Positions 4,156 to 39,283 of a stretch of 64,000 bases of DNA are shown piece by piece. The first letter of the stretch is position 1; each line of letters begins with the position of its first letter. Position numbers and translations under genes: made by a program. Origin of the DNA: Escherichia phage kvi; the sequence record MN850615.1; one strand, given 5' to 3'. The notes under the pieces were generated by a model, which made no database searches, was not told the DNA's origin, and saw only the letters and a list, made by a program, of their open reading frames with translations.

Positions 4156-5157
4156 TTAGTAATGGCTAAAACCTTCGGTCACATCTTCAACCACATAGTA
4201 ACGATGACAGCGCATTTTGGCATTTGCATAATCTTTCGGGATACTTACAACGTGACGCGGATCAACTTTGCATTTAATGATTCGGCCTCGTCCACCGCCA
4301 TAGTGCGGAATATAGTGTTTCGCTGCAACGTGGAGGCCATTAGAGCAAGTGCGATCATCATCTGGGTCCACGTCTTTACGCTTCATTTTAACCGTGCGAC
4401 CTGGGCTATTATCAAACGTATGCGTAAAGAAATCTTTATAATCAACATCAACACGTTTCCATGCATAGAAACAACCATCTTCCACGATCTCAATGTCGTT
4501 GTGCTCTAAGAAGTCAAATAGACGATCTACGGCCTTACGGCTAGGGTTTTTCTTGCACTTCTCAAAGAAGTTAAGATAGTGCGTATATGGCTTATTCTCT
4601 TTAATCGACTCCACAACTCGACGAGTCAGATTATTATCAAGAACAATATTATGATAATACACAATACCATTTTCGATACGGAAAGCGCCGTGATAATATA
4701 CTTCAACCGCTTTCTTAATGTCAATCAGCGTAATAGCTTTGATGAAATCATTATGTTTAATCGCTTCCAGTGCTTCCTTAAAGTTAACATGTGATGGATC
4801 AGCAGTATAAACAATGTCACCACATGTAATAGTAATAAACTTAGTTGAGGCTATGGCTACGATTTTTGAGGAAGTAGTTACGGGCTTTTTTGCGCGTTCA
4901 CCGCCTTTTCCTTTACTGGTTTTACGGCGTGCTTTACGTTTTTCTAGTGCCTTGCGACCTTCCGCTACTGCGTCTTTCTGAATCAGTAATACACGGGAGG
5001 CAGTGCGACGAGATACACCAAATGCTGCCGCAAGTGCTTCGCGGGTAGTAAACTTACCTTCGCCCCACTGTTTAGCCAGTTTGATTTGTTTCGCAGAATC
5101 CAGACATTGAACGTTACGGTCAGAGACGGTGATTTTTGCTTTAGTCATAGTATTCAT
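4156..5157 (-). CDS. rIIB: RIIB-like protein
   Basis: C-terminal half recalls T4 rIIB (..KCKVDPRHVVSIPKDYANAKMR..VVEDVTE..); adjacent to rIIA; alternative ATG at 5148 has the better SD. Confidence 0.8.
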   Translation of the reverse strand: MNTMTKAKITVSDRNVQCLDSAKQIKLAKQWGEGKFTTREALAAAFGVSRRTASRVLLIQKDAVAEGRKALEKRKARRKTSKGKGGERAKKPVTTSSKIVAIASTKFITITCGDIVYTADPSHVNFKEALEAIKHNDFIKAITLIDIKKAVEVYYHGAFRIENGIVYYHNIVLDNNLTRRVVESIKENKPYTHYLNFFEKCKKNPSRKAVDRLFDFLEHNDIEIVEDGCFYAWKRVDVDYKDFFTHTFDNSPGRTVKMKRKDVDPDDDRTCSNGLHVAAKHYIPHYGGGRGRIIKCKVDPRHVVSIPKDYANAKMRCHRYYVVEDVTEGFSHY

Positions 5158-7476: not shown

Positions 7477-7734
7477 TTAATTAAAATCTTCTTTGTCCAT
7501 CTCTGCGTAGATTACATCCCACGCCCATAAATCAATAAACGCATTATATGTCACGGTGCAATCGTTGTCAATCACTTCTTTCGCATATTTCTTGATGTTT
7601 TCGTAGGAAACTTGCGGGTCAATTTTGTGTTTACGAAGGTGCGCATATTCATATCTCAGACATTTCATAAACAGGTCCATCGATTTCTTTTCTCGATGAC
7701 ACTTGGCGATCATAAAATCAAAACTTCGACTCAT
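7477..7734 (-). CDS. hypothetical protein (85 aa)
   Basis: track ORF. Confidence 0.5.
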   Translation of the reverse strand: MSRSFDFMIAKCHREKKSMDLFMKCLRYEYAHLRKHKIDPQVSYENIKKYAKEVIDNDCTVTYNAFIDLWAWDVIYAEMDKEDFN

Positions 7735-7745
7735 TTTTCTACTCC

Positions 7746-7940
7746 TTATACATTTTCAATTACCCATTGCAGATGGGCTTCTGCGTCAACCAGTTCAGCG
7801 CGGCTTTTCTCTAAGCACTTGCTGTATTCTTTACGTTCCCACTCGGCAATTTCGTTTTTCAGGACTTCTTCATAGTAAGCAATTACGCCTTTCAGGTCTG
7901 AAACTTTACGGCTTGCCAATTCGATGTAATGGTTACGCAT
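7746..7940 (-). CDS. hypothetical protein (64 aa)
   Basis: track ORF. Confidence 0.45.
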   Translation of the reverse strand: MRNHYIELASRKVSDLKGVIAYYEEVLKNEIAEWERKEYSKCLEKSRAELVDAEAHLQWVIENV

Positions 7941-8127
7941 TTTGATTCTCCTTTGTTACTAGATAACGAATTTGGTCTTGCATTGCGATCAGTTCCCAGC
8001 GTGCTACTTTCATCATGGAAACTGACTCTTTGAACATAATATTAGCTTTTTCCTTCTCCCCTGTCAAGTAGATTTCTGCAATTTTTTCACAAAATTTTTG
8101 AGTTTCTTCATTCTTAAACGGTTTCAT
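7933..8127 (-). CDS. hypothetical protein (64 aa)
   Basis: track ORF 7933..8136 starts at TTG; ATG at 8127. Confidence 0.45.
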   Translation of the reverse strand: MKPFKNEETQKFCEKIAEIYLTGEKEKANIMFKESVSMMKVARWELIAMQDQIRYLVTKENQNA

Positions 8128-8157
8128 ATAAGTCAACCTTTTGTTTTCGATGGGGAC

Positions 8158-8186
8158 ATTATGATATATCCCCGATCCAGTGTCAA
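8158..8186 (-). promoter_or_regulatory. sigma70-type promoter (TTGACA-N17-CATAAT) flanked by inverted repeat
   Basis: rc of 8181..8186 TTGACA; rc of 8158..8163 CATAAT; inverted repeat ggggac..atcccc brackets the -10. Confidence 0.5.
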
Positions 8187-8193
8187 CAGATTT

Positions 8194-8493
8194 TTAATCT
8201 TTTTTCAATGCATCCATTACTCGCTCTGCGATCAGTTCTCGTAAGCACTGATAACCATGATATTTGATGGCAATGTCACGCAGATCATTAACCAGTTCCC
8301 GTACTTCATGGTCTTTCAGATCGTCTCTGTATTTCGATTTAACCGTGTCTTTAGGTGGATTGTGGATAACCTGAAAACCTTGTTCTGCAATCACTGCGGC
8401 TTCTCGCTGGCGTTCATGTTGTACTGTATTTTTGATCAGGTCTACTTCCATGAACTTTGTCATACTCATCATCATGTTATTCTTTTTGCTCAT
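8194..8493 (-). CDS. hypothetical protein (99 aa)
   Basis: track ORF 8194..8529 trimmed to ATG at 8493 with GAGGA SD; longer start overlaps promoter. Confidence 0.5.
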   Translation of the reverse strand: MSKKNNMMMSMTKFMEVDLIKNTVQHERQREAAVIAEQGFQVIHNPPKDTVKSKYRDDLKDHEVRELVNDLRDIAIKYHGYQCLRELIAERVMDALKKD

Positions 8494-17150: not shown

Positions 17151-17354
17151 TTATAGCTCAAATTTCATGAAAGTTCCCACACTTTCATTTTCATTCTCTC
17201 CGTTCTCATCTAAGCCAAATTTGTAGACACTACCATCTGGCGATGTGTAAGAGAATACACGAAAACGGCCTACCGAATCAAGTTCTGTAAATTCATATTC
17301 TTTTCCGGCTTCAAAAAGTGCATATGTGCTTTTAAGACATTTCATCGTAATCAT
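17151..17354 (-). CDS. hypothetical protein (67 aa)
   Basis: track ORF. Confidence 0.45.
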   Translation of the reverse strand: MITMKCLKSTYALFEAGKEYEFTELDSVGRFRVFSYTSPDGSVYKFGLDENGENENESVGTFMKFEL

Positions 17355-17674
17355 TTAAGCGCCACCGACAACAGAATGAGAACTACACCAACATACATTG
17401 TGATCTCGGATAACTTTTCTGTTTTTGTTTTGTGTCCAGATAATCCGAAAACAACAACACCGACAATAGCGGACAGCAAGCCAACGATAAACATGATGAT
17501 ACTAAGCACCGTCTTTCTCCTTTTTGCGTTTTTCTTTACCCGCTACACTAGGTCCACGATTGGTAATAGATCCGCTCGTTTCCCCTGCTGCGATCTTCTC
17601 AGGATTGCCGCCAGCATCGCCAGCGGTCATATCTTCTTTGAGTTTATTTTCTTCAACAAACTGTTTAAATCCAA

Positions 17675-18052
17675 TCATAGAATAATCTCTTTCAGTAAGT
17701 CAACAATCTGGTCTTTCGTCAGTTTATCCTGATTCTCTACAATCTTGATAACACAAGCATTAACATCTTTTCGAGTCACGCGGGAGATCGTTTTAATACG
17801 ATGAAACGGTTCGTAGAAATATACTGCTTCATTATAGAGCGCAGCAATTTTTCGACGCATTTGATCTTTATCTGACAAGAAAACAAGTGCTGTTTTATGA
17901 CCTTCTACACCCGCCACGTTATATAGTTCAGCAACACCCCAGCGACCTTCCGGTTCAATCATTCCGGCGTGTTTACCGTCGATAAAAATAAGAATATCTC
18001 CGTTGAATGCGGTTTTGAATGCTACATCTTCCGGCGTAATCATATTTTTCAT
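17675..18052 (-). CDS. hypothetical protein (125 aa)
   Basis: track ORF. Confidence 0.5.
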   Translation of the reverse strand: MKNMITPEDVAFKTAFNGDILIFIDGKHAGMIEPEGRWGVAELYNVAGVEGHKTALVFLSDKDQMRRKIAALYNEAVYFYEPFHRIKTISRVTRKDVNACVIKIVENQDKLTKDQIVDLLKEIIL

Positions 18053-18082
18053 AATATCGTCTCCTTAGAGTTTCATTATAGA

Positions 18083-18718
18083 TCAAGCGAATGTAGAAAG
18101 CAAACGTTTTGTTTCTTTCAGTTGTCGTTCAAGATCTTTGCGTTTCTCTTTAAGTTGCATTTTAGCATTATTTCGCTCTCTTGTAACCTCTTTATCAATG
18201 CTCTTATTCCAGTTATCAATATCAGAATAAGTTGGCATACCCAATTCTAGACCTAATGCGGTTGGATACAGGGTAACAGTCCATAAACCGCTAATCTTCT
18301 TAAATAGGTCGGGGTGTAGTGTACTATCTACATCTTCCGGTGTCAACTCTTTTTCTTCTTTCAGTGGTGGGATCTCGTCATATGGTTCCAGTGCATTTAC
18401 TTTAATATCAGATACCTCATCAAAGAATCCGCGTACATCCGCAGGAAATACACAAGCAATTTCCCAACCGTGATCACGCAGAGAAGTAATATTTTTCACT
18501 CCCCCACCATGTGTGATGATTGATGTGACATTGCCATCAAGGTCCACCGAATTTACGAGAAATGGCTTATCGTCTGTCAGATCATTATAAAACTGTGCTT
18601 CGGCTGTAGTCATCTCCAGAAACAGATCTCGGATCGGACGACCATCAGGTGCGTTACCTTCCTTGAGAGTATAAAAGCGACTTACGATCCATTTTGGCGG
18701 TAAAGCATTAGCGATCAT
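18083..18718 (-). CDS. hypothetical protein (211 aa)
   Basis: track ORF. Confidence 0.5.
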   Translation of the reverse strand: MIANALPPKWIVSRFYTLKEGNAPDGRPIRDLFLEMTTAEAQFYNDLTDDKPFLVNSVDLDGNVTSIITHGGGVKNITSLRDHGWEIACVFPADVRGFFDEVSDIKVNALEPYDEIPPLKEEKELTPEDVDSTLHPDLFKKISGLWTVTLYPTALGLELGMPTYSDIDNWNKSIDKEVTRERNNAKMQLKEKRKDLERQLKETKRLLSTFA

Positions 18719-32553: not shown

Positions 32554-33579
32554 CTAACTTTTTGCGCTATTTACCTCGGCTAAAAGTTCATCAGAAATAC
32601 GCTTGACCGCCGCAAGTTCTTCCGGTTCTAGGTTTTGTTCTTCCAGATATTCATATACCATCTGAATAGTGCTTTTAACTTCAATAACACCTGTTTCCTG
32701 TGATGCGCTACTCTCCAGTTTATGGACCACTTTTAGCTTGTGTACAACGGCCTCTAACGCGCTTTCTAACTTAGTTAACCCATTATCAGCAACCGTTGCA
32801 ATAAGACGCACACTAAGCCCCTTAAAGCGTTCTACATCGATTTTATCATCTGACGGGTAAGTGATACGCACATGATAAGTTTTGTCATTCTGGATAAACT
32901 CTTTTTTGTGTGTATCGGTATCGAATACCCAAAACCCACGCGGATCGTTTTCGTCACCCGCCGTTAGTGTGTATGGTGTACCGATATACGTTACATTACC
33001 GCCATCGCTGATAGTATGAAAATGACCGGAAAACACTTCACGGTATTTCTTGAGGAAGTCCGCGCTATAACCTTCGGATTTTAGCCCTTTATAGAAATAG
33101 TAACCGGACAATTCCCAATGGCCTACACAATATTCGCTGAATGAGTTTTGAATAAACTCTAAAATCTCTGATTTATTGTCATCACAAAACCACGGGAACA
33201 GATCAAATGATACACCATCAAAGGTAACTGTTTCCGGTTTATCGATAACCTTAATGCAATCATACTGGCTTAACACTTCACGCGGTGCGTTAGGCTGGAT
33301 CTTGTTTCGTTTAAACATATCATGGTTCCCGACCGTGATATAACAAGTAATTCCAGCCTCTTCCAGTAATGGGATGACCTTAGTACGGTTAAATTTCATG
33401 GTTTCATGGGTAATTGCTTTTCGGCAATCAAACCAATCCCCTGTTTGAATCCATGTCTTAATATTATGCTCTTTGGAGTATTCAACCGCCTTCTTGATGG
33501 TATCAAGAATATACTCATGCACCCACGGATCATCGCCACCGATACCAGTATGCAGATCACCTAAAAGCAAAATTTTCAT
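32554..33579 (-). CDS. 47: recombination nuclease subunit (Mre11/SbcD-like phosphoesterase)
   Basis: 341 aa; phosphoesterase motifs ..LLLGDLH.., ..GDWFD.., ..GNHD.., ..GHFH.. Confidence 0.9.
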   Translation of the reverse strand: MKILLLGDLHTGIGGDDPWVHEYILDTIKKAVEYSKEHNIKTWIQTGDWFDCRKAITHETMKFNRTKVIPLLEEAGITCYITVGNHDMFKRNKIQPNAPREVLSQYDCIKVIDKPETVTFDGVSFDLFPWFCDDNKSEILEFIQNSFSEYCVGHWELSGYYFYKGLKSEGYSADFLKKYREVFSGHFHTISDGGNVTYIGTPYTLTAGDENDPRGFWVFDTDTHKKEFIQNDKTYHVRITYPSDDKIDVERFKGLSVRLIATVADNGLTKLESALEAVVHKLKVVHKLESSASQETGVIEVKSTIQMVYEYLEEQNLEPEELAAVKRISDELLAEVNSAKS

Positions 33580-33669
33580 AGTCTCTTCCTCTCTTCGTTT
33601 TCGATGCTCTCACTATATCACAGAAAAATAAAAAGGGAAACCCCTTTCAGAGTCTCCCTTATAAAGCCA

Positions 33670-33957
33670 TTACAGCATACTTAATACCGTTTGCCGTGTA
33701 CTAATCCACATAGCAGAAAGCAGTTCTGGCGTGTGTGGCTGTTTGTAGATATCACGTAACTTTCCGATAGCGTAGATATACGCATCACGGTTATCATCGA
33801 TGATAGCTTGTTCAGCCCACCGCTTAAGGCGTGCAATCTCTCGCGAGTTCTTACGCAAGATCTTTTCCGCTTTCTTAGCGGCTTTAGCCTCTAGTTCTGC
33901 TTGTACTTTGTCTACTTCATTCACTGCAATCTGGTCATGCTGTTCATTGCAAGTCAT
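33670..33957 (-). CDS. hypothetical protein (95 aa)
   Basis: track ORF. Confidence 0.45.
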   Translation of the reverse strand: MTCNEQHDQIAVNEVDKVQAELEAKAAKKAEKILRKNSREIARLKRWAEQAIIDDNRDAYIYAIGKLRDIYKQPHTPELLSAMWISTRQTVLSML

Positions 33958-33958
33958 A

Positions 33959-34192
33959 TTATTTTACCTCTGGGATATAATCAATTATTAAAGAAAATTC
34001 ATCTTCTGATACATTATAGCTATGTGAGATTGTACCCGTAAAGACCTCAAGATCCGGTGATTTGATATTGCACGGATCGATAATCACCGGAACGCCGCAA
34101 TCTCTCAAAAATAATTTGGCGAAATACGGCACAAGGTCAGTTTCAAACTCTGCTTCTTCCAGCAAACGGGAAATGTTAATTTTCAATCTCAT
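33959..34192 (-). CDS. hypothetical protein (77 aa)
   Basis: track ORF. Confidence 0.4.
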
Positions 34193-34709
34193 AAAATTGG
34201 TCCAAGCTAGGCAATTCCTCGGTCAATACATCTTCAACCTTTGGCGCTTTCGGTTTATTGACCGATTCCTCGTAGTTGTTGATTTTATCGTAAATGTCCT
34301 GTATGAATGCCTCATCAGCAATCTGGCACATATCAGCGTCGCGTTCGTCATATACATGATGCACAAAATATTTGTATTTTGCGGCTGTCGCTGTTCTCTC
34401 TTTTTTAATGCGCTGTACAAAAGCATTAAAGCACGCTTGCGTGATGTAAGCATGAGGATTTTTATACTTTGTCTCGTCAAAATTAATCAAACCCTTGACC
34501 GCCGCTTCGATTCCGTCGTCGATCATTTCTTCGCGCCATGTTTGACTATAACCAGAAAAGTTAAAACGACGTGATAGATTTTTAGAGATTTGCATAATTG
34601 CTAGGCCGATTTGATCGCTCATTGGAACTTGCCGACCTTCTGCTGCAATTTGTTGTTTCCAACGGCAAATTTCTTCGTAAAGCTCTTTATTGTTTACATA
34701 ATCAGACAC
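34176..34709 (-). CDS. 55: late-transcription sigma factor
   Basis: 177 aa; ..[56 protein letters not shown].. recalls T4 gp55. Confidence 0.9.
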
Positions 34710-34749: not shown

Positions 34750-36219
34750 CTATTCCCCATTGCCATTATACTTTCTTTGCTTAGTTATCCACACTCTAAC
34801 CATCTCTACAGATTCGCCGTCAGACGGATCAAGAGTTTTTCCTTTTTTCTTCATGCGGTACTTAAATCCGTTAAATCTTGCATTCTCTTGCTCGTTAAAG
34901 TCGAACATCTTTTTAAATGATTTTCGCCCTTTACGCTCACCACATTCTAGCGGAATCATTCGGTCTGTTATTACATTGGCATTAGGTAGAAACGTTTTTA
35001 GATAATCCACCAACGCCCAATCAGGAACATATAGATTAACATTCTCCTTGCTCTCGTTGTCTCTCAGGTTACAACGCAAACATAATTGAAATGCTGGTTC
35101 CAGATAATCAGACACATGACGCGCTTTCAAAAACTCGTTTGTCGGGAGATCACAACTATTAGCAAGACCTTTTAAAATATCAATCTCCCATCGTTGAGGG
35201 TTAAAGCTGAACATCACAGCAACATTTTTATGATGAATGTAAGAGTTAAGACCATAAGATCCGTAAGGTATCCGCTCACCAATACCATTTGTACACGCTT
35301 CTCGGTCCCGATTCACGGTATAAATGAAGTCATCGCCACATTCATTTTTAACCATATCAACAAGACGTTCAAAGGTATTGTTTGTTTCTGACTGGTGACG
35401 CGACCATCGTTCAGAGTCCGTCATAAGGATGATATTAACTCTATCTGTATTTTTATACTCTTTGAAATATAGTCTGGATTCTAGCGCACTCGGAACAAAA
35501 TCGCAATTTGCATAGTATCGTAGATACTTCCCACTATATGTATCAAAGAGATTTGCACATGCTATCGTAACCTTTTTAAAGTCTCCCCACGTACCGTGTT
35601 TGTTATCGTTCAAGAAAACAATTTTCGACCCATTCTTCCGGTGTCCTTCGTTATGTTTTACCATAACGTTGATTTTCTTCTCTAATAACGCCTCATAAAG
35701 CCCTCTAAGAGAAGAATCGATCATATCAGTACCATCCTTCGCACTTTCTATCTTTTCTTTGATAGCGGCCTTCTCAGAGTCTTTTAGAACTAAGTTCTGT
35801 AGGCATTCCGATTCGTCGGCGATTGGTTCGCAATGCTTCGTGATAAGTTCAAGATTAGACTTAAACGGATACTCATTAAATTCAACCAGTTGAGGAACTT
35901 CATCAATGTAAAGAGCATAATCACCAAACATTTTTGAACGTTCCATATTAGATAACGCTGTATGTGTAATGAATATCACATCAGCACCGTCTTTAACTGA
36001 TTGCATTATCGACGCTTGCACTGTCTTAAGGCTTCTTAGTCTTGTGCTATCAATCAAGACAGCACGACCGCCCATTCTTTTAAACTTATTGTAAGATTGT
36101 TCACTTAAAACACGAGATGGCGAAGCAATAACCGCTTTTTCTTTTGTCTCTAGGACGTGGGAAAGTATAGCATCAGTTTTCCCCGCCGCTGGCAATGCGA
36201 TTAATGTTTCAATCTTCAT
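34750..36219 (-). CDS. P-loop NTPase, possibly SF2-helicase-like (489 aa)
   Basis: Walker A ..ALPAAGKT.., motif-Ia-like ..ASPSRVLSEQ.., Walker B ..YIDEVPQ..; basic C-terminal tail. Confidence 0.5.
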   Translation of the reverse strand: MKIETLIALPAAGKTDAILSHVLETKEKAVIASPSRVLSEQSYNKFKRMGGRAVLIDSTRLRSLKTVQASIMQSVKDGADVIFITHTALSNMERSKMFGDYALYIDEVPQLVEFNEYPFKSNLELITKHCEPIADESECLQNLVLKDSEKAAIKEKIESAKDGTDMIDSSLRGLYEALLEKKINVMVKHNEGHRKNGSKIVFLNDNKHGTWGDFKKVTIACANLFDTYSGKYLRYYANCDFVPSALESRLYFKEYKNTDRVNIILMTDSERWSRHQSETNNTFERLVDMVKNECGDDFIYTVNRDREACTNGIGERIPYGSYGLNSYIHHKNVAVMFSFNPQRWEIDILKGLANSCDLPTNEFLKARHVSDYLEPAFQLCLRCNLRDNESKENVNLYVPDWALVDYLKTFLPNANVITDRMIPLECGERKGRKSFKKMFDFNEQENARFNGFKYRMKKKGKTLDPSDGESVEMVRVWITKQRKYNGNGE

Positions 36220-36524
36220 TAGAAACCCTTACGTCGTGCTTTCTGGCATTTCTTGATCATTTTATCAGAAATTTCGCGCTTAGGTGCAATCTCTTTCACA
36301 CCGAAAGCACTAATGCCAAATTCAGAGAGAATATATTCAACCAACAATTCACGCACACGCGCTTTACCGATATTCACGCCGTTATTTTTCAGATATGTCT
36401 GGCCTTCGACTTGCATCAGATCTAAATCCGCGTCGGTAATATTGATTTCTTCCATGCGCCCAAATCGAGAATAAACCATGTGTGCGATTGCATTGTGTAC
36501 TAACATAATATATTCCTCACTCAA
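36219..36524 (-). CDS. hypothetical protein (101 aa)
   Basis: track ORF. Confidence 0.45.
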   Translation of the reverse strand: MSEEYIMLVHNAIAHMVYSRFGRMEEINITDADLDLMQVEGQTYLKNNGVNIGKARVRELLVEYILSEFGISAFGVKEIAPKREISDKMIKKCQKARRKGF

Positions 36525-36526
36525 GA

Positions 36527-36686
36527 ATTACTTAATGATACTTACTTTACCAGATCCGTGACAATGAGCGCAACACCCATCACCACGCAATCCTGTTCCG
36601 TTACAGTGTTTACACTTCTTCAACGGTAAAGCCATTATAGCAAATAAAGCAATAATGAACACCGAAACTAAATTCTCAATAATCAT
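36527..36686 (-). pseudogene. small membrane-anchored ORF with two CxxCxGxG motifs, disrupted by an apparent 1-nt frameshift
   Basis: frame 1 from ATG 36686 gives MIIENLVSVFIIALFAIMALPLKKCKHC then stops; removing one A from the aaa run at about 36598..36600 gives ..CKHCNGTGLRGDGCCAHCHGSGKVSIIK. Confidence 0.35.
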
Positions 36687-36945
36687 AAATCGCCCTCAGT
36701 TCTTTATAGCCTCCAATGTGCTCGTTGTCAATGAATATCTGGGGGTATACAAACCGGAGGCTCTTTGAGTTTAGCCTCCCCGCCAGTTCTTCAATCATAT
36801 CACGGTCGGGAATAATGTCAACCCCGACCTGCTTGAATACTGGTTTAAGTGTATACGGAATACCCAGATCATCCAGTAGCTTCATTGCACTAATACAACC
36901 ATAACAATGATAAGCCTCTTTCGGTATACCGTATATCTCGATCAT
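36676..36945 (-). CDS. nrdH: glutaredoxin-like protein (NrdH-like)
   Basis: 89 aa; CxxC-type active site (..CYGC..), C-terminal ..HIGGYKEL.. glutaredoxin fold signature; next to the nrdG/nrdD region. Confidence 0.7.
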   Translation of the reverse strand: MIEIYGIPKEAYHCYGCISAMKLLDDLGIPYTLKPVFKQVGVDIIPDRDMIEELAGRLNSKSLRFVYPQIFIDNEHIGGYKELRAIYDY

Positions 36946-37442
36946 TTCTCAGCCTTTAATCTTTCTAGTTCTTCTTCCAGTTCCTTGATCCGTTGGTCAC
37001 GTTCAAAGTCACGCTGTAACTTAGTGGCGAATACTCGTTTAAACTGATTGTAATCATCGATTTTAAACACTTCTTCTTCGCCATAGCGACGCACAGAAAC
37101 TTCGTAGTTATTGAAGAATTGTTGCATCATTGCTTCGGATGATAGCTCTGCTGATACCACTTTAAAATATTGATCTTCTGTAGGCGAAAACCAATTACAA
37201 GCATAAAGATAAACCTTTTCATTGTCTGGACACTGGTAAGCCTTACCATCGATTTCAATCACAGAAACATACTCAGGTATACTAGATGAATCAATAGCTA
37301 AGACTTTAAACGCACGGTCCCCGATAAACTCGGAGATCACACGATTCGCATCACTGGTTGCAAATGCTTTACGCGCTTGTTCGTTTTTCCACTGATAGGT
37401 CATACCAACAACAAACATATTACCAACCTCGCTCTTTACCAA
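36942..37442 (-). CDS. member of a tandem paralogous family (N-terminal beta-rich module with ..IEIDG.. and C-terminal helical tail)
   Basis: 166 aa; shares ..TYQWKNE.., ..VIEIDGKAY.., coiled-coil tail with neighbours. Confidence 0.5.
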   Translation of the reverse strand: MVKSEVGNMFVVGMTYQWKNEQARKAFATSDANRVISEFIGDRAFKVLAIDSSSIPEYVSVIEIDGKAYQCPDNEKVYLYACNWFSPTEDQYFKVVSAELSSEAMMQQFFNNYEVSVRRYGEEEVFKIDDYNQFKRVFATKLQRDFERDQRIKELEEELERLKAEK

Positions 37443-38244
37443 TCAAAAATTCAACTTCACGACGTTTAATGTCTTCTTGAAGGTCTTTAATCTTCTGGCG
37501 ATCTTGCATGATTTCATCCATCTTGTCAAGTGCCGCAATGAAATCATCGAAACGTTCAAAGGTTTTACCTTCATTTGCTTCGCCAAATTTAACCATTGTC
37601 AGGCCGTAACGACTACTAAACAGACGTTTCAACTGTCCAACGATCTTAGAATCAGTGGTTATAACTTCCAATTCTTCTACTTCACGAAAGAATTTTCTAT
37701 CAGAATCAATAAACCAGCTAGTTCCTTTATGGTCTCTATCTTCGGTTGCGCTCATTAGAGTATGGTCTTTACCATCAATTTCAATTACATCAATTTGCCC
37801 ACATGGACGAACATTTTTAACAGTAAAAGGTCTATAATTTATTGCTCGTGCAATAACATAATTAAGGTTAGATACGTTTTCAGCATAATGGCAGAAGTCG
37901 GTCATAGCATTCACATCTTTCCAAGTATAAGTTTTACCAACTTCCCATTTCTGGGGAACTTCTTCAACTTCACGAAAGAATTTTCTATCAAATGGACTAA
38001 AGAAATATGTTGCAGTCCAAATGTCTTTTCCTGTAGCAGTTTTCGCCGTATGATAAACACCGTCTAGCTCTATTGCATTAATCCAACCGTTACCCTCGAT
38101 CTCGATGATGGTAAATGGCTTGTCACCAATAGCTGCACTAATATCGCTGTTAAGTGGAGAAAGAACACCTTCTCCGTTAGTAATAAACTCAGTTTTAGCG
38201 TTTTCATCTTTCCAGGTGTAAGTTTTACCAATTTCCCATTTCAT
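37420..38244 (-). CDS. paralogous family member with two tandem copies of the N-terminal module
   Basis: 274 aa; MKWEIGKTYTWKDENAKTEF..IEIEG..FDRKFFREVEE then KWEVGKTYTWKDVNAMTDF..IEIDG..SDRKFFREVEE. Confidence 0.55.
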   Translation of the reverse strand: MKWEIGKTYTWKDENAKTEFITNGEGVLSPLNSDISAAIGDKPFTIIEIEGNGWINAIELDGVYHTAKTATGKDIWTATYFFSPFDRKFFREVEEVPQKWEVGKTYTWKDVNAMTDFCHYAENVSNLNYVIARAINYRPFTVKNVRPCGQIDVIEIDGKDHTLMSATEDRDHKGTSWFIDSDRKFFREVEELEVITTDSKIVGQLKRLFSSRYGLTMVKFGEANEGKTFERFDDFIAALDKMDEIMQDRQKIKDLQEDIKRREVEFLIGKERGW

Positions 38245-38256
38245 AATATATTCCCC

Positions 38257-38757
38257 TTAACCGATTTTATCAAGTTCGTTTAATGCTTTCTCTGCTTCCT
38301 GTATAGCTTGCACTCTTTCCGGCATTTTGTCAAGAAAATCTTTCAACTCTTCAAAACTGGAGATATGACGCAAGGCATTAGCACCGATAGCCGCATGTGA
38401 TTTGCATTCAAAGCGAATTTTATAATTATCCATCGCCAATTTGAGAAGGTCTATTAGATCATATTCATGACCAGGCAATAAAACTTCTTTGAAGCACGCT
38501 CGGTCGCCATCGGAAAACCATATATTATCACCAACATCGATAGAACTAATATAATCCCCTTCGTGATTATAGATTGAACGTACATTACCCCAACGGTCTA
38601 CCGTAGCGACAGTAAATGGTTTATCTAGATATGTAAACACACCATCAATATTAGGTTTTTGTTCGTAACGCCAACAATCACGCAAAATGCGCTTTTCGTC
38701 CTCACCAACCAACTTATATGTCTTCCCTTCTTCCCATTTCATAATATCATCTCTCAT
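38257..38757 (-). CDS. paralogous family member
   Basis: 166 aa; MKWEEGKTYK.., ..DRACFKEV.., helical tail. Confidence 0.5.
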   Translation of the reverse strand: MRDDIMKWEEGKTYKLVGEDEKRILRDCWRYEQKPNIDGVFTYLDKPFTVATVDRWGNVRSIYNHEGDYISSIDVGDNIWFSDGDRACFKEVLLPGHEYDLIDLLKLAMDNYKIRFECKSHAAIGANALRHISSFEELKDFLDKMPERVQAIQEAEKALNELDKIG

Positions 38758-39283
38758 TTTTGATACGTGATTCTAATTGGATCATACGGTCGCGCGTTTG
38801 CTTGTATTCGCGGATAGCACCGATCCGGCTAGGCATACCATCCAGTACGCTCTTAATACCTTCTATGGTAGTAATTTTGGCAATGCTATTATGTAACCCC
38901 ATCTTATCGATCAACTGAATGTCGTAGGCTTCCATAAGCAGACCCAGACGTTCTAAAGTTAGGTCTTCTTCTTTTTCTTCCGATTCTGGAATCTTAGGTT
39001 CAATAGTAACTTCGGTAAAGAAACGACGCTCACCCGACCAAAACCACACACCGGAACAGCCAATAGGGGATTCTTTTAACGTCATAGAGTCGAAATTACT
39101 ATTATTGGTAGTAATTTCTCTAACATCACCATCATCGTCAAGGTCTTCTACCCTAAACGGGCGACCAGCCAACAAGTCAACAATACATCTGTTAATAGAC
39201 GACGAAAATTTAGTCAGTTCGGCTTTCGACGCTTCGCATTCAATCTTGTAAGTTTTACCAACTTCCCATTCCATAATAATCAC
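38747..39283 (-). CDS. paralogous family member
   Basis: 178 aa; MEWEVGKTYK.., ..ERRFFTEV.., helical tail. Confidence 0.5.
   Translation of the reverse strand: MIIMEWEVGKTYKIECEASKAELTKFSSSINRCIVDLLAGRPFRVEDLDDDGDVREITTNNSNFDSMTLKESPIGCSGVWFWSGERRFFTEVTIEPKIPESEEKEEDLTLERLGLLMEAYDIQLIDKMGLHNSIAKITTIEGIKSVLDGMPSRIGAIREYKQTRDRMIQLESRIKNER

Follow-up and report, generated by a model that had tools for sequence, protein, structure and literature searches.

Helicases of the XPD/Rad3/DinG type are defined by a 4Fe-4S cluster domain with four cysteines, located between motifs Ia and II, which the XPD-type enzymes use as a wedge, and they carry an Arch domain between helicase motifs II and III. Phage T4 provides the textbook replication system, and the T4-like phages use a DnaG-type primase, gp61. 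A further group was delineated computationally by Kazlauskas et al. 2018 (J Mol Biol 430:737), who described as "putative new helicases" the families pVOG1685 and pVOG9714 of T4-like phages and SPbeta, with the pVOG9714 branch being most similar to UL9 (PF02399). Here we examine a protein of 489 amino acids (aa) encoded on the minus strand in a 64,000-nucleotide (nt) stretch, henceforth the window, from Escherichia phage kvi (MN850615.1), a Krischvirus, i.e., a T4-like coliphage of the RB49/JSE/phi1 type. We consider it very likely that this protein is an ATPase of superfamily 2 (SF2) that depends on nucleic acid and acts on DNA, a DNA helicase or translocase being the likeliest kind; the fuller statement, which adds a role in phage DNA replication or recombination, we judge with less assurance to be probable.

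The two-RecA core and its motifs

The original prediction, made from the letters of the window and a list of its open reading frames (ORFs), had singled out a P-loop NTPase with, tentatively, an SF2-helicase-like N-terminal domain at 34750..36219, and these boundaries are exact: 489 aa is precisely the length of the minus-strand ORF at that interval. The protein is 100% identical in phage JSE and 99.8% identical in RB49, whose orthologue, RB49ORF044c, is labeled "hypothetical protein"; over the 8-kilobase (kb) stretch around the gene, identity is 99.9% with phage FL20 and 97-99% with 50-odd related phages. Relative to RB49, the gene shows 10 synonymous codon changes and 1 nonsynonymous change, and full-length orthologues are found at 31-74% identity. 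The matches in JSE and RB49, the full-length orthologues, and the 10:1 synonymous excess together argue that this is not a chance ORF. An alignment of the window protein with 41 orthologues (42 sequences in all) has 56 invariant columns, which spread beyond the P-loop domain, and at the sequence level purifying selection on the gene and strong constraint on its catalytic motifs are evident. The gene and its parts are as follows, with residues in the true protein numbering (Met = 1):

34750..36219, minus strand: coding sequence of the predicted 489-aa SF2 helicase-like ATPase, orthologue of RB49ORF044c; stop codon at 34750-34752
35893..36219, minus strand: RecA-like domain 1, first part (residues 1-109), from the Pfam DEAD match, invariant columns, and model secondary structure
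36175-36192, minus strand: Walker A (motif I), P10-A-A-G13-K14-T15, within ..ALPAAGKT.., AAGKT being residues 11-15
36097-36126, minus strand: motif Ia, A32-Q41 (ASPSRVLSEQ, residues 32-41)
in RecA-like domain 1, minus strand: motif Ib region, V81-x-F83-x-T85-H86
35890-35910, minus strand: motif II, D106-E107-V-P109 (YIDEVPQ, residues 104-110)
35602..35892, minus strand: insertion of ~95 residues (110-206) between motifs II and III, from model secondary structure and alignment
35455..35601, minus strand: RecA-like domain 1, second part (residues 207-255), with the motif III-like strand V217-T-I-A-C-A-N223
34972..35454, minus strand: RecA-like domain 2 (residues 256-416), with motif IV-like F298-I-Y-T-x-N303-x-x-R306, motif V-like G323-L-N325, and F337-S-F-N340-P
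35062-35091, minus strand: motif VI, F377-Q378-L-C380-x-R382-x-x-x-R386
34753..34971, minus strand: basic C-terminal tail (residues 417-489, 73 residues)

All three motifs that had been read from the translation, namely, the Walker A, the motif Ia-like, and the Walker B segments, are present as described, and motif VI, which had been reported missing, is in fact present as an invariant Q378...R382...R386 block at the end of RecA-like domain 2. Invariant across the 42 sequences are P10, G13, K14, and T15 in motif I; S33 and S42 in motif Ia; F83 and T85 in the motif Ib region; D106, E107, and P109 in motif II, which reads DEVP; Y300, N303, and R306 in the motif IV-like segment; G323 and N325 in the motif V-like segment; N340 and W344; and F377-Q378-L379-C380-x-R382-x-x-x-R386. 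Taken as SF2 signatures, G13-K14-T15, S33..Q41, D106-E107, and Q378/R382/R386 are invariant or nearly so. Judged by its sequence, the protein is predicted to be catalytically competent, with its two-RecA ATPase intact.

Among profiles, Pfam DEAD/DEAH (PF00270) matches residues 11-130 with 27.3 bits against a cut-off of 26 and also matches 19 of the 42 orthologues (best E=2.2e-8); together with the two RecA-like domains and motif VI, this match upholds the proposed class. The best profile match (E=2.9e-175) is to phrog_2467, which is listed under "unknown function", and it spans residues 1-489 and positions 8-502 of the 502 in the profile, so that a profile search, as had been advised, led to no known non-helicase family of T4. 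NCBIfam gave no match to the protein, searches of PDB sequences with the single protein and with the 42-member profile returned nothing meaningful, and Pfam DEAD_2 (PF06733) and Helicase_C_2 (PF13307) are absent among the matches of the 42 orthologues at E<=1.

Structure prediction, also advised at the outset, yielded an AlphaFold2 model built from the 42-sequence alignment (mean predicted local distance difference test [pLDDT] score, 87.5; predicted template-modeling score [pTM], 0.77) with two alpha/beta domains, i.e., RecA-like domains in tandem. In the model, the second RecA domain finishes with a long helix (362-380), and motif VI sits at the end of this helix, the place expected for it; the insertion forms a two-strand stalk (~112-119 and 198-205) with a helical cap, within which C130 (in a CEP motif) and D165 are invariant. 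The only invariant cysteines are C130 and C380, with none in residues 1-108. The tail is highly basic, as had been noticed, with 18 lysines and arginines, a net charge of +7, and an isoelectric point of 9.8; it is modeled as a flexible linker (425-430, pLDDT below 50) followed by a helical hairpin, it retains E445 and W477 as invariant residues, and it might constitute a DNA- or partner-binding segment. When the model was compared with the PDB by Foldseek, ranks 1-16 were all XPD, DinG, CasDinG, or Rad3 structures (E=2e-10 to 4e-7).

On this basis, we propose that ATP would be bound between the RecA domains, with K14/T15 and D106/E107 contributed by domain 1 and Q378/R382/R386 by domain 2, motif VI probably supplying the arginine finger that closes RecA domain 2. 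Hydrolysis could then drive stepwise movement along DNA gripped by motifs Ia, Ib, IV, and V, and the stalk-and-cap insertion and the basic tail might provide surfaces for strand separation, clamping, or partner binding. If the analogy with XPD holds, the polarity would be 5'-3', which we advance with low confidence.

Primase fusions and mobile elements among the relatives

When 1.84 billion cluster representatives were searched exhaustively with the profile, 1,329 proteins were recovered at E<=1e-3, 764 of them at E<=1e-10, giving a family of at least 1,329 cluster representatives that is restricted to phages and mobile genetic elements. The 189 relatives retrieved are mostly stand-alone proteins of ~450-600 aa, and the stand-alone phage proteins have no primase-like domain; 67 of the 189 have at least 700 aa, and in 65 of these a conserved C-terminal domain follows the helicase module. 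This domain has the consensus "..LDxDxG..NSxS..RxRVxIP..GxDxSK..FYLP..", the acidic motifs of which fit motifs I and III of the archaeo-eukaryotic primases (AEPs); in three members it matches PriCT_1/PriCT_2, the primase C-terminal domains (best E=4.9e-7), and in two it weakly matches a "DNA primase" PHROG. On account of these motifs, the PriCT matches, and the literature, PDB having offered no relative, we regard it as a probable divergent AEP-type primase(-polymerase) domain. One relative, P0130, has the reverse order, with a canonical AEP N-terminus (VFDFDED / GSGHVYVKV / LFDMSV) followed by the helicase module. Another, the metagenomic P0150 (1,266 aa), has ~400 extra N-terminal residues (1-416) before its helicase-primase module, in which residues 351-387 weakly resemble the profile of the primase-like domain and may represent a degenerate second copy.

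A genome scan with a 7-sequence alignment located bacterial loci coding for such fusions, two of which, in alphaproteobacterial genomes, were examined. At one, a P4-type tyrosine integrase beside hisS and hisG is followed, 2.6 kb downstream, by the fusion gene; at the other, the fusion gene immediately precedes a tyrosine integrase and an IS91 transposase. Since integrases are neighbors at both loci, we assign the fusion proteins to integrated mobile elements, and they look like the replication proteins of those elements. The gene contexts of the long relative P0043 and in Pseudoalteromonas phage PH357 were uninformative. Because the bacterial mobile-element relatives are fused to AEP-type primase(-polymerase) domains, we favor for the phage protein a role in replication or recombination, in which it would serve phage DNA replication (recombination-dependent replication included), recombination, or repair as an accessory enzyme beside gp41, Dda, and UvsW. 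Non-cyanobacterial T4 relatives keep gp41, gp59, Dda, and UvsW (PMC2993671), and for this reason the protein is better seen as an additional motor than as a replacement.

When all SPbeta ORFs were compared with both family profiles, YonV (410 aa) was the single best match for each, at E=1.9e-10 for the profile of the long relatives and E=0.15 for the T4-like one; the matches are collinear, with Walker A, motif II, and motif VI aligned. This is what the description by Kazlauskas et al. 2018 predicts, and PHROG 2467 is very probably their pVOG1685/9714 helicase family. The gene yonV (SPbeta locus 17250-18482), a remote relative of the helicase-like family, is itself annotated as hypothetical.

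The locus in T4-like phages

By tblastn, the protein is present in 243 of 50,697 phage records, with no T4- or Tequatrovirus-named record among the matches listed; gene 55 matches features annotated as late sigma factor in 1,995 phage records, and by this comparison the helicase-like gene is an accessory one, carried by a minority of lineages. These are Krischvirus; Pseudotevenvirus and other RB16/RB43-like phages of Cronobacter, Enterobacter, Citrobacter, and Klebsiella; Bragavirus and Morganella phage MP1; Roskildevirus (Erwinia phage Cronus); Serratia phages; and Aeromonas phages such as 25, 44RR, AS-gz, CC2, and Aeh1. As a separate observation, the feature names under the family match in Klebsiella phage phi1_146010 (PP889464.1, 37533-38948) include "DNA primase". 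The possibility that the gene marks phages without hydroxymethyl-cytosine, i.e., with unmodified cytosine, was rejected, as Cronus has both the gene and an alpha-glucosyltransferase. The surroundings of the gene in the window comprise the following:

34176..34709, minus strand: gene 55 (late sigma factor), 40 nt downstream of the stop codon of the helicase-like gene
36219..36524, minus strand: gene 55.2 homologue (DUF7570; Pfam E=1.4e-28)
36535..36564, minus strand: candidate early promoter, sigma-70-like, TTGTCA-18-TATCAT (10/12), just upstream of 55.2
36676..36945, minus strand: glutaredoxin/nrdH-like ORF (Pfam Glutaredoxin), called nrdH in RB49
36794-36821: candidate early promoter, stronger and sigma-70-like, TTGACA-16-TATGAT with TG (11/12), upstream of 55.2

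The gene had been placed between nrdH and gene 55, and so it lies, with two small ORFs, one for a 52-aa CxxC protein and the other the 55.2 homologue, intervening on the nrdH side. In RB49, the 55.2 homologue is annotated as a 95-aa product beginning with the ATG at 36506. At the junction with the helicase-like gene, the sequence TAATG contains both the stop codon of 55.2 and the overlapping start codon of that gene, which suggests translational coupling. The further claim that T4 has no gene of such size at this position also held, the sole T4 gene between 55.2 and 55 being 55.1 (71 aa, DUF5495), and among the matches listed no homology of the 489-aa protein to the T4 genes of the locus (55.1, 55.2, and a-gt) was found. 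The description of the protein as unexpected is apt relative to T4 but not beyond it, as RB49-type and many other non-T-even T4-like phages regularly carry the gene in a conserved order.

The order nrdH ... 55.2 - helicase - 55 - (a-gt.5/.4) - 47 - 46 is kept in most lineages. The DUF7570/55.2 gene abuts or overlaps the start of the helicase-like gene in Krischvirus, Bragavirus, Ceceduovirus, Cronobacter phage S13, and RB16, and in RB16 the pair is intact even though gene 55 is no longer adjacent. The phages that show this arrangement besides the window are RB16, Proteus phage Pm5461, Aeromonas phage CC2, and Cronobacter phage S13. The two genes are paired in five of the seven lineages examined. 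An obligatory functional pair is weakened as an explanation by T4, which has 55.2 without the helicase-like gene, and by AS-gz and Cronus, in which unrelated genes stand directly upstream; the pairing may reflect inherited synteny rather than a functional unit. In AS-gz, the gene directly upstream, gp156 (locus 4429-5004), overlaps the start of the helicase orthologue and bears the RefSeq label "DprA-like DNA recombination-mediator protein", with nothing found by Pfam at E<=0.01; if true, the label would tie the helicase to single-stranded DNA or recombination functions.

With regard to expression, neither a late promoter (TATAAATA) nor a MotA-box promoter was found near the helicase-like gene. 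The two sigma-70-like sites listed above, which are candidates for driving both 55.2 and the helicase-like gene, come from a consensus scan only, which found 28 such sites against 19.6 +/- 3.8 expected and makes them weak evidence. In T4, gene 55.2 is transcribed early and its product acts as an inhibitor of host topoisomerase I, and 55.1 blocks nucleotide-excision repair (PMC4396842). Given the upstream sigma-70-like sites, the lack of late or MotA-box promoters nearby, and the early T4 55.2 mRNA, the gene is most likely expressed early; it would then be cotranscribed and translationally coupled with 55.2 in an early-type operon.

Several other features of the neighborhood may be recorded. 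No Rfam families or notable repeats were found in or beside the helicase-like gene. The 52-aa ORF at 36528-36686 (minus strand), conserved as RB49ORF046c, combines a hydrophobic N-terminal segment with a CxxC...CxxC pattern (KCKHCNGTG...CCAHCHGSG) and is a putative small membrane-anchored zinc-ribbon protein. Between nrdH and nrdG, at 36942-39283 (minus strand), are four tandem ORFs of 166, 274, 166, and 178 aa (RB49ORF048c-051c), which are paralogues with 25-32% pairwise identity (E down to 3e-15) and no match in Pfam; they have in common a ~90-aa domain starting with "W-E-x-G-K-T-Y", of which the 274-aa protein has two copies. In RB49, an HNH-AP2 homing-endonuclease ORF, RB49ORF040c, sits between gene 47 and a-gt.4 (RB49 locus 7641-8195); in the window, the two genes are only ~90 nt apart (33579-33670), this mobile endonuclease being missing from the phage.

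Alternative readings and comparison with known systems

Several observations weigh against the proposal of a DNA helicase or translocase with a role in replication or recombination. T4 and ~88% of the phage records that encode gp55 do without the gene, from which it follows that the T4-type replication scheme does not require it. The phage protein itself lacks a primase domain, and its link to replication is one of guilt by association with distant relatives of ~20-25% identity; in those relatives, the canonical motif II His is not conserved in the primase-like domain, and a profile of that domain alone found no relative among PDB sequences. The resemblance to XPD/DinG is modest (template-modeling [TM] scores of 0.38-0.52), the 312 residues aligned to XPD correspond to about the size of two RecA cores alone, and DEAD_2 and Helicase_C_2 are unmatched and the Fe-S domain is absent. 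We found no experimental work in the literature on any family member, including YonV and the Krischvirus helicases. Finally, the IS-excision enhancer (IEE) of E. coli, which combines AEP and SF2 domains, is a DNA-dependent ATPase without unwinding activity (PMC9943667), so the term "helicase" may overstate what the protein does.

This precedent leads to a reading that overlaps our own, namely, that the protein is a DNA-dependent ATPase that does not unwind, serving as a clamp, remodeler, or protein-displacing motor in the manner of the helicase-like domain of IEE or of Snf2-type enzymes. We think this rather unlikely. It draws on the parallel that the present family is likewise fused to AEP domains and on the lack of the Fe-S wedge of XPD-type helicases; however, CasDinG is described as having a vestigial Fe-S domain only and as still being an active 5'-3' helicase (PMC10450177), and the invariance of all ATPase and nucleic-acid-contact motifs fits either reading. 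An action on phage or host transcripts, as a DEAD-box-type RNA helicase, is extremely unlikely: motif II is DEVP rather than DEAD, the P-loop starts at residue 10 and leaves no room for a Q-motif, there is neither a SAT motif III nor an HRIGR motif VI (FQLCxRxxxR stands in its stead), Pfam Helicase_C has no match in the 42 orthologues, the full-length structural neighbors are DNA helicases, and the fusion partners are DNA primases.

Two further readings look to other roles. The protein might be a host-takeover or counter-defense factor, a translocase directed against restriction or defense complexes or one working with gp55.2 on host DNA topology, as could be suspected from its patchy spread among T4-like genera, from its pairing with 55.2 in most of the lineages examined, and from its place in a plastic early region that in T4 is home to the host-directed ORFans 55.1 and 55.2 (PMC4396842). 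Yet defense and anti-defense models match at noise level only (PADLOC best E=0.0089), T4 has 55.2 on its own, Aeromonas AS-gz and Erwinia Cronus have the gene with no 55.2 beside it, and the fusion partners of the relatives are primases rather than nucleases or sensors; we accordingly give this reading little credence. Slightly more doubtful still is an origin-recognizing initiator helicase like UL9 of herpesviruses, which would offer an initiation route that T4 lacks. The similarity of the pVOG9714 branch to UL9/PF02399 (Kazlauskas et al. 2018) speaks for it, as do a match of 1 of 60 long relatives to Herpes_ori_bp (E=0.0086), a modeled basic, helical C-terminal tail that could bind DNA, and the appearance of the mobile-element helicase-primase, next to an integrase, as a sole replication protein. 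Against these stand the lack of any PF02399 match in the window protein and its 41 orthologues, the absence of origin-like repeats near the gene, the failure to detect a sequence-specific DNA-binding domain, and the retention of a complete T4-type core replication set in these phages (PMC2993671).

A DNA helicase or translocase thus remains our preferred reading. A bolder version, which we think quite unlikely to hold, is that the protein is the stand-alone half of an ancestral helicase-primase replicase, a mobile-element-type initiator or restart helicase with a UL9-like logic, which the T-evens lost in exchange for 55.1. If this were true, phages of the RB49, RB43, and Aeromonas types would start or restart replication by a route absent in T4, and the enzyme might cooperate with the translationally coupled, topoisomerase-I-binding gp55.2.

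The gene has long been deposited in RB49-type phages, and the family was flagged computationally as putative helicases in 2018. The present analysis contributes the complete series of motifs, motif VI among them; a confident model that shows an XPD/DinG-like topology and no Fe-S cluster; and a measure of how large the family is, the finding that its fusions are mostly of the helicase-then-primase order, and the linkage to 55.2. There is, then, an extra, strictly conserved SF2 motor in 243 phage records from about a dozen genera, which the databases call hypothetical. Its placement in a helicase family of viruses and mobile elements with primase fusions provides a testable annotation, which fills a gap and overturns nothing, and RB49 or JSE on E. 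coli K-12 offers a tractable model phage for the whole family.

Compared with known systems, the protein is closest to PHROG 2467 and the family of Kazlauskas et al., with a full-length match, a shared occurrence in T4-like phages, relatives that are fused to AEP primases, and YonV as a remote relative; there is no difference in kind, and the members are unnamed in GenBank records. The best structural neighbors, by two independent methods, are XPD, Rad3, DinG, and CasDinG. The protein and the XPD-type enzymes have in common a two-RecA core, an insertion in RecA1 between motifs II and III, a DExx motif, and a Q...R...R motif VI, and the insertion at 110-206 occupies the topological position of the XPD/DinG Arch domain at about half its size, homology between the two being unproven. 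Unlike XPD, it lacks the 4Fe-4S domain, having ~40 residues and no conserved cysteine between motifs Ia and Ib, and sequence identity to XPD/DinG is 10-16%. From the model we call its architecture XPD/DinG-like without assigning the protein to the XPD/DinG family. With UvsW of T4 it would share the character of an SF2 DNA helicase of T4-like phages, UvsW acting in recombination and replication.

To our knowledge, IEE of E. coli is the only biochemically studied protein with an SF2 + AEP architecture. Compared by architecture, both it and the fusion proteins of the present family combine an SF2 ATPase module with an AEP polymerase in a mobile element; in IEE the order is AEP and then helicase, and its non-unwinding SF2 domain stabilizes DNA binding and end synapsis (PMC9943667). 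With the helicase-primase fusions of its own family, which include AEP/PriCT proteins and PHROG 31024, the phage protein shares a homologous module of ~440 residues that extends into the start of the basic segment after RecA2; whereas the fusions continue into a primase domain, the phage protein ends after its 70-residue basic tail.

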